The position numbers were made by a program, and so were the translations under genes. Below are positions 57,211 through 63,564 of a DNA stretch of 64,000 bases, piece by piece (positions within the stretch are counted from its first letter, which is position 1; the number at the start of each line of letters is the position of its first letter). The notes below the pieces were generated by a model that saw only the letters and a program-made list of their open reading frames with translations, was not told where the DNA came from and did no database searches. This DNA is from a virus (taxonomy: Duplodnaviria > Heunggongvirae > Uroviricota > Caudoviricetes). The stretch lies in IMG/VR virus record IMGVR_UViG_3300030035_000081, positions 1-64,000 of that record. One strand, written 5' to 3'.

Positions 57211-57286
57211 GCTGGTTTAGCTCAGCTGGTAGTGCAACTGATTTGTAATCAGTCGGTCATCGGTTCAAGTCCGATTTCCAGCTCCA
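57211..57286 (+). tRNA. tRNA-Thr(UGU)-like with two U-U mismatches at the base of the acceptor stem
   Basis: Manual cloverleaf. Anticodon loop TTTGTAA, T-arm ATCGG/CCGAT, encoded CCA. Confidence 0.5.
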
Positions 57287-57759
57287 GACGCTATCCGTTG
57301 GATGTATCGAAATCACATGATACGATGCTATACACAACATCTGGCGGACAGCATGCCACCCATTAAGGCGGCCTCCTCGTGGCGGGTGGCGGACAGCGGC
57401 TCTTGCGGCTGCTGACGAATGTCTTAGAAGCATGCAAACGTACGAGCATCCCCGTCAAGTCGGGGCGCATCCAGACGCGACACAGCCGTAAAGGCGAGAT
57501 TGCTGCACGGCAACTGGTAAGTTTCGCCGCAGTCTCACACACAGCCCAACAACAACCGTTAACCCGATTTGACAGGGAATCAACGACAGGGCTCAAAATT
57601 TGAAGTTGACCAACACCCAAGCGCTTTCTTGGATTCTCGCGTATCGTCAACGATGAGGTTCGCAAGATTGTCAGGTGGTGTGAAGATGACATCCGGGGAT
57701 GACGACCTACTAAACGGATGTCATGGCGGGGCTAAGTGAGGGTTCACCCGCAATCTTAT

Positions 57760-57834
57760 GCAGGTATCGTATAACGGCTAATACTCCGCCCCTCCAAGGC
57801 GGAGACGCGGGTTCGACCCCCGCTACTTGCTCCA
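57760..57834 (+). tRNA. tRNA-Gly(UCC)
   Basis: Manual cloverleaf. Anticodon loop CCTCCAA, T-loop TTCGACC, CCA encoded. Confidence 0.8.
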
Positions 57835-58105
57835 CACGTCGCAGTCACCGTACCCACGACGTTAAACTTGGTGAGCATGGTCCACTTGTGGTCCGCTGTC
57901 CGAATGTCGATGAGACAGCCTCAAAAATAATAGACAAACAGGTGCTGTGCCTGATAGTATCCAATAGTCCCGGTATTAGTCGCGAATAAGACCGGAAAAC
58001 AGCGGAAAGGGTATAAAGCAGAATCCATCGATGCAGCTATCGAATGGTGCTGGATGCGAGTTGGCTTCTCGCTCAAGGGGTGACCAGCATAAAACACCCT
58101 ATCGT

Positions 58106-58181
58106 GCTCGATTAGCTCAGTTGGTAGAGCAGCGCATTCGTAACGCGCAGGTCGGCAGTTCGAACCTGCCATCAAGCCCCA
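58106..58181 (+). tRNA. tRNA-Thr(CGU)
   Basis: Anticodon loop TTCGTAA. One mismatch each in the acceptor and anticodon stems. Confidence 0.7.
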
Positions 58182-58219
58182 TTACCCAATGAAGCGATAA
58201 TAGAAAGGAGATGAAACTT

Positions 58220-58603
58220 ATGGAACAGGCAATTATCAATGTTGAAGGTACGACTACCATAGAAACCGCTGCAGCAGCCAAAAAGCTGATTGAAATGTTT
58301 GGCAATCAGAACGTCCGCGCCATCTCGGTCAATCGTGTAAACGACAAGAGCGACGAGGTCATTGTTGAACTCGATTTCGTTCCCGGTTTGGCACCGCATC
58401 TGCACGGCTTCACGCTTCAGGTTAATGGCTTGACTTGCGGTTATGCTGGTACTGGTCCTTCCAATCTGTATGAAGTCCTGCAGGCGGCTGGCGTGAGTGA
58501 AGCTCAGGTAGCACGCGAGGACATCACTCAGAAGAGCACAAAAACCATTCCTCTGCGCCTGGAACGCGCCGTGACTCAGTACGGCGACTTCCAGTTTGCG
58601 TAA
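58220..58603 (+). CDS. hypothetical protein (127 aa) embedded between tRNA genes
   Basis: GAAAGGAGA RBS. Confidence 0.5.
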   Translation: MEQAIINVEGTTTIETAAAAKKLIEMFGNQNVRAISVNRVNDKSDEVIVELDFVPGLAPHLHGFTLQVNGLTCGYAGTGPSNLYEVLQAAGVSEAQVAREDITQKSTKTIPLRLERAVTQYGDFQFA

Positions 58604-58633
58604 CGTTATTTGGCGGGCTTGACCCGCCATCAT

Positions 58634-58709
58634 GGAGGGATAGCTTAGCTGGATAAAGCACCTGCCGCAAAGCAGGGTATCGATGGTTCGAGGCCATCTC
58701 CCTTCTCCA
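58634..58709 (+). tRNA. tRNA-like gene with non-canonical anticodon arm (6-nt loop CGCAAA on a 5-bp stem, or 8-nt loop on a 4-bp stem); identity unresolved
   Basis: Canonical acceptor, D and T arms and CCA, but no 7-nt anticodon loop can be drawn. Confidence 0.4.
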
Positions 58710-58910
58710 TCCAGACACCCTTTCGCTTCCTTTCGCCAAAGGTATCTGGGGTATTGTACTGCATTGCGTGTAGTACGGCCAATCAGGCGCGGAACTCCGA
58801 AACCATACCACGAAGAATTTTATCCTCTCCGCGCAGCATGGACATGCGATTTTACGGGGATAAATTCAAACCGAAATTGTGTCGAGTGGTGAAGACGGTT
58901 GCGACACTGG

Positions 58911-58990
58911 CGAAGCACATATCTGCTTCGTCAACCATCCATGAGAAAGCCTCCACGTGGCAGATGGTGGGCAACGCAGCAAAGCTGCGG
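58911..58990 (+). ncRNA. copy 3 of recurring structured RNA motif (CCATC/GATGG stem around CATGAGAAAGCCUCCACGCGGCA; then TGGGCAAC and hairpin GCAGCAAAGCTGC)
   Basis: Seen in sequence. Confidence 0.45.
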
Positions 58991-59068
58991 CTGATTTCTT
59001 TCAAACCGGTATCTGAATAAATGCAGATAAATAGACGAAAAAATCAAAAAAGCAAAGGAGTACACAGC

Positions 59069-60202
59069 ATGAGTAATCAGAAAATCATCAAAGCAATCGC
59101 AGGGATTGCAGCAGCCGGTATGATGGCAACTTGTCTGCCTGTCGCAGCATTCGCAGCCACCGGCGACACCTATCATTTCTCTTTCAGCAACGGTTCTTCC
59201 CAGGACCTGGCTCCGGGCGGCTCTATGACGTTCCCGGCAAGCCAGTATGACTACGGTTACTGGATTACCCTGCAGGGCCACGGCGGCTACACCTACAACT
59301 ACTATCCCGGCGACACTCTGCCGTACGATGCAGTTGACCAGTGGTTCACCGCTGACGGCATCACTTCCTGCTATGCGGCCGAAGGTAATCCGCGTTCCAT
59401 CACCATCAACTATCAGATTGACGGCAACACTGTGCTGACCGAAACTGACACCGCCACTTTCCCCGGCAGCGTTGATGGTCAGAGCGTTGAAGCCTGGACC
59501 ACCGATTCCGGCGATACTTACACCGCATCCAGCAAGAGCCTGAACCATGACCGCCTGTTCTACTACCTGGGCGACGACATCCACGACAACGTCCTGACCC
59601 TGAAAGCCACTTCTGCATCCACTCCCGATGACGGCAAGGATGACAACAAGGGCGATGACAAGGGCGATGTCACCAACCCCGACGATAAGGGCGACAACAA
59701 GGGCGACAATACCGGCGACAGCGGCACCACCACTCCCGATGACAAGGGCGACGTAGTGGCCCCCGATAAGGACAACACCGGTAAGGACAACACTTCTACC
59801 GGCTCCAACAAGGGCAACGGTACTACCACCACTACTCCGACCGCTCCTCGCAAGAACGTTGAAGTCTCTGAGCACGGTGAAATTGCCGCCGCTATTGCCA
59901 ATGGCACCTGGGGCAATGAGTACACCGTCTGCACCAGCTGTGGCTATCACAACTGGACCCGCAAGGGTAACGTTTACGTCTGTGACCATTGTGGTCACGA
60001 AGTTCTGACTGTCAAGGGCGCTGATGGCGTCAAGGGTTATGCTGGCACTCTGGCTGGCAACGAGCCCCAGTACGCTTCTACCTCTGAAGCTCAGGCTGCT
60101 GCTGAAAAGCGTGAAGCCGCTTATGCCGCTTCCATCGCTGCTCTGCAGGCACAGGTTGCCGCTCGTGAAGCTGCTTATGCCGCTTCCCTGGGCATCCACT
60201 AA
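59069..60202 (+). CDS. secreted protein with signal peptide, Asp/Lys/Gly-rich TPDDKGD repeats and a C-terminal Cys4 zinc-ribbon
   Basis: AAAGGAG RBS. Signal peptide MSNQKIIKAIAGIAAAGMMATCLPVAAFA. CTSCGY...CDHCGH. Confidence 0.65.
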   Translation: MSNQKIIKAIAGIAAAGMMATCLPVAAFAATGDTYHFSFSNGSSQDLAPGGSMTFPASQYDYGYWITLQGHGGYTYNYYPGDTLPYDAVDQWFTADGITSCYAAEGNPRSITINYQIDGNTVLTETDTATFPGSVDGQSVEAWTTDSGDTYTASSKSLNHDRLFYYLGDDIHDNVLTLKATSASTPDDGKDDNKGDDKGDVTNPDDKGDNKGDNTGDSGTTTPDDKGDVVAPDKDNTGKDNTSTGSNKGNGTTTTTPTAPRKNVEVSEHGEIAAAIANGTWGNEYTVCTSCGYHNWTRKGNVYVCDHCGHEVLTVKGADGVKGYAGTLAGNEPQYASTSEAQAAAEKREAAYAASIAALQAQVAAREAAYAASLGIH

Positions 60203-60251
60203 TTTGCCATCCTCTAACTAACGGTAATCGATAGTTTTTTCTCCTTGCTGT

Positions 60252-62749: not shown

Positions 62750-62780
62750 TTGCCTGCAATACAGAAAGGCAGCAAGAAAA

Positions 62781-63002
62781 ATGAACGTTCCTACTATTGA
62801 TATTCAGAAAACTGGTGCCAACATTAAGACACTGCGAAAGGCAGCAGGTATCAAGGTGAAAGATGTGGCAGATACACTCGGCGTATCCACGCAGGCAGTT
62901 GCCAAATGGCAAGCTGGAACAGCACTCCCCACCATCGACAACCTTGTGATATTGGCAGCGATGCTGGATACCAAGATAGATGACATCTTAGTCATCGCAT
63001 AA
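62781..63002 (+). CDS. XRE-family HTH transcriptional regulator (73 aa)
   Basis: IKTLRKAAGIKVKDVADTLGVSTQAVAKWQAG is a classic HTH_3. Confidence 0.75.
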   Translation: MNVPTIDIQKTGANIKTLRKAAGIKVKDVADTLGVSTQAVAKWQAGTALPTIDNLVILAAMLDTKIDDILVIA

Positions 63003-63030
63003 TCCCCGCCGCAGGATTGCGGCTATATAT

Positions 63031-63110
63031 GGCCCGTTGGACGAATTGGTAGAGTTGCCGCCCTTTCACGGCGGAGGTTATTGTGGGTTCGAAACCCACA
63101 CGGGTCACCA
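63031..63110 (+). tRNA. tRNA-Glu(UUC), 80 nt with insertions
   Basis: GGCCCGTTGG...CGCCCTTTCACGGCGG...ACGGGTCACCA. D-arm and variable region 4 nt longer than canonical. Confidence 0.6.
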
Positions 63111-63111
63111 T

Positions 63112-63187
63112 GCTTCTGTAGCTCAGTTGGTAGAGCAGCGGTCTGAAGAACCGCGTGTCGCTGGTTCGATTCCAGCCGGGAGCACCA
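63112..63187 (+). tRNA. tRNA-Phe(GAA)
   Basis: Loop CTGAAGA. Canonical arms. Confidence 0.85.
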
Positions 63188-63190
63188 TAT

Positions 63191-63275
63191 GTGTCGGTAT
63201 GCAAGAGGTTAAAGCAAACGGTCTGTAAAACCGCTCCGTTACGGTTCACTGGTTCGAATCCAGTCCGACACACCA
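63191..63275 (+). tRNA. tRNA-Tyr(GUA)
   Basis: Type II. Loop CTGTAAA. Variable hairpin CCGTTACGG. Confidence 0.85.
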
Positions 63276-63278
63276 TAA

Positions 63279-63352
63279 GGCCCCTTCGACAAGTTGGTCC
63301 AAGTCGCCAGCCTCTCAAGCTGGAGTCGGCAGTTCGAGTCTGCCAGGGGTCA
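63279..63352 (+). tRNA. tRNA-Glu(CUC)-like, no encoded CCA
   Basis: Anticodon stem CCAGC/GCTGG, loop CTCTCAA. Confidence 0.5.
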
Positions 63353-63383
63353 TACAAGCACCTATGTCAAAAAGGTGCATTAT

Positions 63384-63473
63384 GCAGAGGTCGCCTAACG
63401 GTAGGGCAGCAGCTTGCTAAGCTGCCGTCGCGGAAATCGCGGCATGTGAGTTCGAATCTCACCCTCTGCGCCA
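63384..63473 (+). tRNA. tRNA-Ser(GCU)
   Basis: Type II. Loop TTGCTAA. Perfect acceptor GCAGAGG/CCTCTGC. Confidence 0.85.
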
Positions 63474-63476
63474 TCT

Positions 63477-63564
63477 GCTTGCTTGTTCGAGTGGTTGATG
63501 AAATCGGTCCAGAAAACCGACGATGGGAGACTGTCCGAAGGTTCGAATCCTTCAGCAAGCGCCA
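63477..63564 (+). tRNA. type-II Ser-like tRNA, anticodon unresolved (loop CCAGAAA suggests AGA with C33)
   Basis: Acceptor GCTTGCT/AGCAAGC. T-arm GAAGG/CCTTC. Long variable arm. Confidence 0.45.

Follow-up and report, generated by a model that had tools for sequence, protein, structure and literature searches.

Arm-less leucine tRNAs, C33 anticodon loops and HDV-like ribozymes in the tRNA array of a phage-like element common in the human gut

Large lytic phages such as T4, T5, KVP40, the mycobacteriophages of cluster C1 and the huge phages carry clusters of tRNA genes, which lie in non-structural regions with small open reading frames (ORFs) and homing-type nucleases between them. Departures of their anticodon loops from the bacterial consensus have been interpreted as nuclease evasion, the hypothesis being that phage tRNAs escape anticodon nucleases through changes in the loop (PMC10264068, van den Berg et al. 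2023). A phage tRNA array of this known sort lies at positions 57211-63564 of the stretch analysed here, a window of 64,000 nucleotides (nt) taken from IMG/VR record IMGVR_UViG_3300030035_000081 (positions 1 to 64,000). Unlike the clusters described so far, it combines leucine tRNAs that lack the long variable arm, four tRNAs with cytidine at position 33 (C33), a tRNA without U33, and ribozymes that resemble the hepatitis delta virus (HDV) ribozyme. Each of these sub-features varies a known theme, namely type I tRNALeu, C33 or an absent position 33, and HDV-like ribozymes, here set upstream of tRNAs. We favour the reading, at a probability of roughly 0.55, that the array is a functional tRNA supplement whose conserved structural departures most likely blunt host tRNA-targeting nucleases, and that it probably helps the virus to keep translating.

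ARAGORN predicts exactly 18 tRNA genes in the 64 kb window, all on the + strand between 57211 and 63564 and none elsewhere, in agreement with the count of about 18 given by the first-pass annotation, a reading of the sequence alone. All 18 match the Rfam tRNA model RF00005 at 46.4-68.7 bits (gathering score 29; E = 1e-7 to 8e-14), which is far beyond chance; the calls rest on these two methods, and the gene at 58634 surfaces only with relaxed speed filters. The genes form one array in that they share a strand, but it is not compact. Four scattered genes (57211-58709), the first three separated by spacers of ~270-470 nt and the fourth preceded by a small ORF, are followed by a lone Ser(UGA) gene at 60286, by seven genes at 61727-62410 and by six at 63031-63564, and the array is interrupted by protein genes at 58221-58603, 59069-60202, 60584-61333 (HD domain) and 62781-63002 (helix-turn-helix, HTH). 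The gene order is retained across related loci, with sequence variants. Encoded CCA is missing from only two of the 18 genes, Leu(UAA) and Glu(CUC), so the earlier remark that several genes lack it was overstated. Folds, relatives, covariation and divergence show that the atypical genes are genuine and conserved and are not artefacts of hand folding.

Mobile operons of many isotypes are also known as L-arrays or tRNA array units from cyanobacteria, Acidithiobacillus and mycobacterial plasmids (PMC4758250, PMC8421152). Those belong to bacterial replicons and have a higher density and 20 or more genes, whereas here 18 genes are spread over 6.35 kb of a viral-type contig. Under the definition of a tRNA array unit, at least 20 tRNA genes at 2 or more per kb (Tran et al. 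2015, PMC4758250), the locus reaches the density (18 genes in 6354 bp, or 2.8 per kb) but its count of 18 falls short, and we do not assign it to that class.

Type I tRNALeu, with a Leu anticodon and a short variable loop, is found in Streptomyces coelicolor (anticodon CAA) and in animal mitochondria, where it coexists with type II tRNALeu in one cell, and the leucyl-tRNA synthetase (LeuRS) of S. coelicolor is the only prokaryotic LeuRS known to charge both types (PMC6614811). Two genes of the array are of this kind, with variable regions clearly shorter than 10 nt: tRNA-Leu(CAA) at 62067..62144 (+ strand, with CCA) and tRNA-Leu(UAA) at 62253..62329 (+ strand, without CCA and with a C31.C39 mismatch). 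Both fold with G1.U72, a 3-bp D stem, an 11-nt Leu-type D loop (AAAYUGGCARA), a 6-nt variable region and A73, and thus keep the Leu-type D loop without the long arm, as had been proposed. They differ from the S. coelicolor and mitochondrial tRNAs in being phage-encoded, in having several anticodons (CAA and UAA; in relatives UAG, AAG and GAG) and in keeping the 3-bp D stem and 11-nt D loop in type II style. One UAA variant from the relatives has A31-U39 and G1-C72 and thereby mends the two irregularities of the window copy.

A covariation alignment of 18 distinct arm-less Leu sequences, drawn from the window and its diverged relatives, from an unrelated viral family, and from an Elusimicrobiales contig and the Acaryochloris array, has 96.2% of its cells paired and shows changes on both sides in 17 of 19 pairs. 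None of 500 shuffles reaches any of the five measures used, and sliding the partners drops pairing to 32-45%; the compensatory covariation of the arm-less Leu tRNAs is strong. The columns for U8, A14, G18G19 and A73, the Leu-type set of identity and tertiary nucleotides in E. coli, are invariant, and A73 occurs in all 26 Leu variants of the family of relatives as well as in every one of the 101 type I Leu tRNAs from other phages. This family is shallow, its members being closely related, and the figures drawn from it show maintenance, not deep conservation. Related phages carry type II Leu genes of 85-87 nt that share the acceptor and D arm with the arm-less form, which implies that the short form arose from a type II gene through arm loss. 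One relative, L054 (IMGVR_UViG_3300045988_183045), has a chimeric gene that joins the 5' half of Leu(CAA) to the 3' half of Leu(UAA); it suggests a deletion by recombination between the paralogues that removed the second Asn copy, or else an assembly artefact.

The Leu D-arm pattern matches 84 IMG/VR viral contigs, most of them with two copies 186 nt apart, as in the window. This paired arrangement was not found in 185,579 species-representative genomes, where the scan returned single ordinary tRNA-Leu genes in unrelated bacteria, plus Acaryochloris; the array of A. marina (L090, NC_009925.1, 4082-4504) holds four consecutive arm-less Leu tRNAs (UAA, CAA, UAG, GAG) with A73. In 96 new, mostly unrelated loci among the IMG/VR matches listed, 77 of the 84 tRNAs that match a short-distance Leu-D-loop pattern carry Leu anticodons, at lengths of 73-80 nt. 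Across unrelated viral loci, a sample taken among the matches listed and biased by how the loci were fetched, the variable region of unique Leu-anticodon tRNAs is bimodal in length (4-8 nt, n = 101; 10-20 nt, n = 181), and the 101 unique arm-less tRNAs, all with A73, come from 71 loci. Their carriers include viral contigs of small and medium size as well as Gordonia phage Sixama, a cultured phage of 115 kb whose annotation includes a tRNA-Leu(tag) of 76 nt and a tRNA-Leu(taa) of 74 nt. In Sixama (L377, 592-991) a tRNA-Glu lies between the two arm-less genes, which are annotated plainly as tRNA-Leu. The arm-less Leu tRNAs are therefore no hallmark of jumbo phages, a status that the first-pass annotation had given to large arrays of divergent tRNAs, and since they, C33 and odd loops recur across unrelated phages, these features are not peculiar to this element either. 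In a searchable literature of incomplete coverage, we found no paper describing type I tRNALeu in phages and no discussion of arm-less tRNALeu with A73 as a phage class, nor of atypical tRNAs in arrays specifically. Such genes are already annotated in GenBank phages, and we do not claim that phage type I tRNALeu or C33 is new to the field.

Position 33 departs from the near-universal U33 in four further tRNAs, a feature missed by the earlier reading: C33 is present in tRNA-Gly(UCC) (57760..57834, +), in both copies of tRNA-Asn(GUU) (61988..62063 and 62174..62249, +) and in the type II tRNA-Ser(AGA) (63477..63564, +). C33 is fixed in the family, where it is found in 66 of 70 Gly copies, 151 of 157 Asn copies and 67 of 67 Ser copies. 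The Asn genes are tandem copies, as had been noted, although the two differ in sequence and alternate with the two Leu genes. Ser(AGA) also bears A34, likewise overlooked, which is unusual for a bacterial-type Ser tRNA. In the bacterial loci compared, all 56 tRNAs have U33, while in unrelated viral loci 69 of 1548 unique tRNAs carry C33, again often Asn, Ser-AGA and Gly-UCC. Once the gene at 58634 is counted, U33 is missing from 5 of the 18 tRNAs. Measured against the universal consensus, the departures are C33 in four tRNAs, loss of U33 in one and 31-39 mismatches in two. A literature search of incomplete coverage found no paper on C33, or on an absent position 33, in phage tRNAs.

The tRNA-like gene at 58634..58709 (+, 46.4 bits) has a deletion at model position 33, and its 5-bp anticodon stem (CCUGC/GCAGG) closes a 6-nt loop, C-GCA-AA, in accord with the earlier observation that the standard 7-nt loop is lacking. 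It looks like a tRNA-Cys(GCA) without U33, a resemblance based on its U73, encoded CCA and the GCA in the loop. The pattern of this gene matches 71 IMG/VR contigs; 76 copies contain three single-base variants, none of them in the loop, and across ~55-80 related loci the gene diverges least of all features, with 0.0045 mismatches per site compared with 0.027-0.046 in the neighbouring ORFs. Sequencing error is ruled out as a source of the short loop by the agreement of the 76 independent copies. No refolding to a 7-nt loop is possible, the sole alternative being an 8-nt loop on a 4-bp stem. In three phage tRNA-Cys genes from other loci the loop reads CCGCAAC.

Other departures are milder. The tRNA-Thr(UGU) at 57211..57286 (+, 55.3 bits; U73, CCA) has the U-U pairs reported earlier, U6.U67 and U7.U66, plus a D-stem U.U that is private to the window copy, and variants of its acceptor stem in relatives bring further mismatches. 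C4.A69 and A31.C39 mismatches and C73 are found in tRNA-Thr(CGU) (58106..58181, +, 57.2 bits), and stem mismatches also occur in the second Asn copy and in Leu(UAA). The tRNA-Glu(UUC) at 63031..63110 (+) has a 3-bp D stem and is indeed 80 nt long, owing to an 8-nt variable loop; relatives have 77-nt versions with a 5-nt loop. Glu(CUC) (63279..63352, +), which had been listed among the oddities, is an ordinary Glu tRNA with a canonical body (57.7 bits). The remaining genes, all on the + strand, are supported by ARAGORN, by the Rfam model and by their folds: a canonical type II tRNA-Ser(UGA) (60286..60374, followed by a terminator at 60380-60395), Gln(UUG) (61727..61800), Lys(UUU) (61881..61956), Trp(CCA) (62335..62410), Phe(GAA) (63112..63187, 68.7 bits), type II Tyr(GUA) (63191..63275) and type II Ser(GCU) (63384..63473). 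In 7 related IMG/VR loci among L001-L084, seven gene copies at the tRNA-Gln position of the array retain the tRNA-Gln body (cgaggattcgcc...) but have the anticodon UUC instead of UUG; six are identical and one has a single change, and the switch, of a single base, makes a reader of Glu codons.

Theta ribozymes provide the closest precedent for the association of ribozymes with phage tRNAs: they are minimal forms, with P4 shortened or missing, that abut phage tRNA 3' ends, with cleavage within +/-5 nt, and only 4.5% of the linked tRNAs encode CCA (PMC10879173). The first operon of our array contains three HDV-like ribozymes, missed by the earlier reading, which share with theta ribozymes the HDV-like fold, a nested double pseudoknot with its catalytic C in J4/2, gut Caudoviricetes as the context, linkage to tRNAs and an implied role in precursor processing. 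The first (rz1, 57126..57206, +) scores 44.0 bits against RF02682, equal to the gathering score, and its 3' end lies 4 nt before tRNA-Thr(UGU); the second (rz2, 57355..57426, +, 34.1 bits) lies 69 nt downstream of that tRNA, and the third (rz3, 58934..59001, +, 40.7 bits) is in the 5' untranslated region of the ORF at 59069, preceded by a hairpin. Unlike in theta ribozymes, rz1 is upstream of its tRNA, 4-5 nt from the 5' end, P4 is full, the matching model is of the Faecalibacterium prausnitzii type, and the linked tRNAs encode CCA. In none of 201 ribozyme instances is the cleavage site within 10 nt of an upstream tRNA 3' end, the nearest in the window being at 68 nt. On cleavage position and on P4 we reject an identity with theta ribozymes; judged by fold and position, the ribozymes of the window are a related arrangement in which the ribozyme lies upstream of the tRNA.

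The best score against RF02682, 60.4 bits, belongs to a fourth ribozyme at 10872-10941 (+), between a VWA-domain gene (9151-10845) and the next ORF, which shows that the element also places these ribozymes between protein genes. This copy and rz1 reach the gathering score of 44 bits for RF02682, the HDV ribozyme of F. prausnitzii; unlike that ribozyme, they stand in a phage operon context and not in the leader of a bacterial gene, and rz2 and rz3, with the same fold, score below the threshold. Helices were scored by explicit segment parsing; a MAFFT alignment mis-registers P1 of rz3 as well as P4. In rz1 the helices P1 to P3 all pair, GG is available for P1.1 and J4/2 holds a C; rz2 shows compensatory changes in P1 and P2. 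The ribozyme rz3 starts with A1 in place of G1, and its window copy carries a single mismatch in P1, absent from most relatives. The P1 sequences of the four window ribozymes and of a copy in the related locus L125 differ (GCUGCUC, GCCGUCC, GCCACCC, ACCAUCC and GCCGCUC), as do the P2 sequences, yet all are complementary; P3 (GCC/GGY), CC in L3 with the following GG for P1.1, and the C of J4/2 are kept, and P4 stem-loops range from ~13 to ~30 nt. Beside this arrangement stands that of L125 (4427-4658), where a homologue of rz2 is followed after a 6-nt gap by a tRNA-Asn with normal U33 and a tRNA-Met(CAU), the latter initiator-like with a C1.A72 mismatch; at the matching place the window has a 333-nt spacer without tRNA.

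In 57 loci rz1 lies ~5 nt upstream of Thr(UGU). It begins one base after a strong hairpin (GGCGCGG-GUAACU-CCGCGCC). This hairpin ends a conserved non-coding leader of 155 nt (56971..57125, +), one base before the ribozyme cleavage site, and the RNA upstream of two of the cleavage sites ends in a strong hairpin. Across ~55 related loci the leader diverges at 0.0055 mismatches per site, below the ORFs, and together with the spacers at 57287-57354 and 57427-57759 it spans 0.0055-0.013 per site against 0.027-0.046 for the ORFs. The leader (z = -2.4) and the conserved spacers fold only moderately better than shuffles (z = -1.9 to -2.6), and none of the three matches an Rfam family; they may be released as small RNAs. 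Upstream of the leader lies a putative sigma-70-like promoter for the first operon (56936..56964, +; TTGACC, 17 nt, TG-TATAAT; 11 of 12 consensus matches). Further promoters are predicted at 60534, 61366 and 62493 and terminators at 60250 (a terminator-like hairpin found by signal scan, 60250..60277, +), 60380 and 62714, bracketing the other blocks.

From these genes, folds and signals we infer how the array might work. It would be transcribed in three or four units, driven by sigma-70-type promoters that belong to the element. The HDV-like ribozymes would cut the transcript of the first unit beside or between its tRNAs, releasing precursors without a host endonuclease and leaving upstream RNAs that end in hairpins, and host RNase P and 3' exonucleases would complete maturation. 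Host synthetases would then charge the tRNAs, the arm-less Leu tRNAs offering U8, A14, G18G19 and A73, and the charged tRNAs would sustain translation of phage mRNA late in infection. Finally, the arm-less Leu tRNAs, the C33 tRNAs (Gly, Asn, Ser) and the Cys-like tRNA without U33 would be poor substrates for defence nucleases while their decoding stays intact. This last step, above all, is conjectural, and it follows the idea published for mycobacteriophage tRNAs (PMC10264068).

Several observations weigh against this reading. The stem mismatches in tRNAs of the first operon, with more in the relatives of Thr(UGU), point to some relaxed constraint, and codon bias in the window is mild (GC at third positions 0.54; UUA and UUG together 23% of Leu codons). 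In model tRNAs, ribosome binding falls when U33 is lost or replaced; a 6-nt anticodon loop without U33 is not expected to decode normally, and the gene at 58634 may not decode at all. E. coli LeuRS cannot charge the one bacterial type I tRNALeu studied (PMC6614811), and charging by the host enzyme is thus not assured. The Kluyveromyces lactis gamma-toxin cleaves a U33C substrate normally (PMC2275089), so C33 is not protective in general.

A bolder form of the proposal, which we hold to be doubtful, treats the arm-less Leu, C33 and U33-less Cys-like tRNAs as one widespread and selected 'stealth tRNA' design that keeps the nucleotides read by synthetases (U8, A14, G18G19, A73 and the anticodon). 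The handles removed or altered would be the long type II variable arm and the U-turn at U33 beside the cut site of PrrC/RloC-type nucleases, and with a ribozyme placed ahead of a tRNA, precursors would be released without help from host endonucleases.

Compared with a functional supplement that blunts nucleases, plain codon supply is a simpler account, possible though rather unlikely: the array would only top up tRNAs for codons that are used more by the phage than by its host, and its odd features would be neutral or slightly deleterious and backed up by host tRNAs. In its favour, 7 of the 18 anticodons have U as their first base and read codons ending in A, window GC is ~47%, Thr(UGU), Thr(CGU), the second Asn copy and Leu(UAA) have stem mismatches, and Thr(UGU) shows acceptor-stem noise in relatives. 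Against it, the family is fixed for C33, for the 6-nt loop and for the short variable loop of Leu, all better conserved than the ORFs; arm-less Leu tRNAs with A73 form a separate length class that recurs in 71 unrelated viral loci, which points to selection and not drift; and codon bias in the window is weak.

The Cys-like tRNA, and perhaps Thr(UGU), could instead act outside translation: as a decoy or sponge for a host enzyme, as a substrate for aminoacyl transfer off the ribosome, or as an element in processing or regulation. We regard this as unlikely, although the gene at 58634, whose loop is not expected to decode normally, is the most conserved feature of the locus and still keeps U73, GCA and CCA, and Thr(UGU), with its weak acceptor stem, is physically tied to a ribozyme. 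No partner enzyme was found in the window, and in other viral loci non-standard loop lengths make up less than 1%, some of which may be prediction noise.

The array is nearly identical in more than 120 IMG/VR contigs, and its carrier is a phage-like element of 270-330 kb that is very common in the human gut. An exact copy of the protein of the ORF at 59069 occurs in 1858 collection blocks, with longest contigs of 201-277 kb and none above 1 Mb; five other window proteins are found exactly on up to 1000 or more contigs, with maximum lengths of 282-329 kb. Among 50,697 GenBank phage records there is no close DNA relative, only tRNA-level matches at 78-85% identity, and the nearest, though distant, protein homologues are from Firmicutes phages. 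No virion hallmark (capsid, portal, terminase) was found in the window or its 10 kb flanks, ~70 kb of a genome of 270-330 kb, and phage identity therefore rests on membership in IMG/VR, PHROG matches and neighbouring genes. The first-pass annotation had likened the array to those of jumbo phages and other mobile elements; a jumbo-phage size is borne out by the IMG/VR relatives and by metagenomic contigs of 260-340 kb, while the phage part lacks a virion hallmark in the DNA covered. We consider the carrier very probably a jumbo phage. That it is instead a megaplasmid or other mobile element with a tRNA operon of the L-array type is improbable: the missing virion genes, a cargo rich in restriction-modification, TnpB, IscB/HEARO and HNH genes and the comparable arrays on cyanobacterial replicons would fit, but the related contigs are listed as viral, the nearest homologues are phage proteins, and PHROG matches, Mor-type late activators, a Phage_lysozyme2 gene and an AcrVA2-like gene speak for a phage.

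Decay of the atypical genes into pseudogenes within an otherwise functional array is suggested by mismatches in several stems and by the rearrangement seen in the Leu chimera and the anticodon-switched Gln copies, but it is highly improbable given the compensatory covariation, the very low divergence of the gene at 58634, the fixation of C33 and scores of at least 46 bits for every gene. The first-pass annotation also linked the array to reprogrammed translation. Recoding by suppressor tRNAs is rejected, as there is no CUA, UUA or UCA anticodon and long ORFs are intact under translation table 11, and UUR codons appear to keep their standard Leu meaning: at the helicase positions coded by UUR, 64% of homologue cells hold Leu, compared with 74% at CUN positions. 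Reassignment of UUA and UUG to another amino acid carried by the arm-less tRNAs, which the missing type II arm and the rejection of type I tRNALeu by E. coli LeuRS might suggest, is next to negligible in view of these alignments, the invariant A73 and Leu-type D arm, and paralogue anticodons that all belong to the Leu box (CAA, UAA, UAG, AAG, GAG).

The window is an accessory region of the element, and its cargo includes helicases, HNH endonucleases, Mor-type activators, TnpB, HEARO RNA, flotillin and VWA genes, together with a PLD nuclease, a nucleotidyltransferase of the RlaP RNA-repair type and a radical-SAM protein; directly downstream in related contigs lie the AcrVA2-like gene and the phage lysozyme (Phage_lysozyme2). 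Within the array, a 127-amino-acid (aa) ORF (58221..58603, +) without a Pfam match is called as a gene in related contigs. The ORF at 59069..60202 (+), downstream of rz3, encodes a 377-aa protein, also without a Pfam match, with a signal-peptide-like N terminus, a low-complexity middle rich in D, K, G and T and a C-terminal CxxC...CxxC motif; it is among the element's most widely recovered proteins. The gene at 60584..61333 (+) encodes an HD_4 domain protein (Pfam PF13328; PDB 7smg, E = 2e-23) that resembles (p)ppApp/(p)ppGpp hydrolases and the hydrolase domains of RelA/SpoT, and it could be a phage alarmone hydrolase or reverse the pyrophosphorylation of tRNA 3' ends by toxSAS toxins. A 73-aa HTH_3 regulator of the Cro/CI type, identified by Pfam, lies directly upstream of the last tRNA block (62781..63002, +). 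The HD_4, RlaP and AcrVA2-like genes fit a theme of RNA and anti-defence, in keeping with the nuclease escape proposed above.

Elsewhere in the window, a HEARO RNA (the IscB-associated omega-RNA family, 91 bits) at 6182-6442 (+) is followed by an SPFH/flotillin ORF (6500-8143, +) with no IscB gene there, and upstream of it a TnpB (OrfB_IS605) gene lies on the opposite strand (4446-5555, -); related contigs have IscB-like RRXRR+HNH genes and further HEARO copies at other positions. An RlaP-family 'RNA repair pathway' nucleotidyltransferase and a metallo-beta-lactamase-fold protein, encoded at 37139-38146 (+) and 44122-45303 (+), are possible enzymes of RNA repair or processing. Ahead of the part that corresponds to the window, the relative L156 has a complete type I restriction-modification system (HsdR, HsdS, HsdM) at 15634-21249; at this site another relative has genes for a Y-family polymerase and DUF4379. 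This flank varies in its defence and cargo genes.

Few large virus-like genomes are assembled from human gut metagenomes as often as that of the carrier, and exact copies of its proteins on at least 1000 contigs make its translation toolkit ecologically relevant. With a ribozyme that precedes its tRNA, the element broadens the recently described association of ribozymes with phage tRNAs (PMC10879173). Arm-less tRNALeu with A73 emerges, in our biased sample, as a distinct and common class across unrelated phages. The array thus offers a natural test set for the charging of arm-less tRNALeu by bacterial LeuRS, so far shown only for Streptomyces, for elongator tRNAs with C33 or without position 33, and for protection against tRNA-cleaving immunity. 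If the stealth design proposed above is true, the loss of the arm in phage tRNALeu would mark an unrecognised class of bacterial defence against type II tRNAs, like that of Schlafen 11 in humans.

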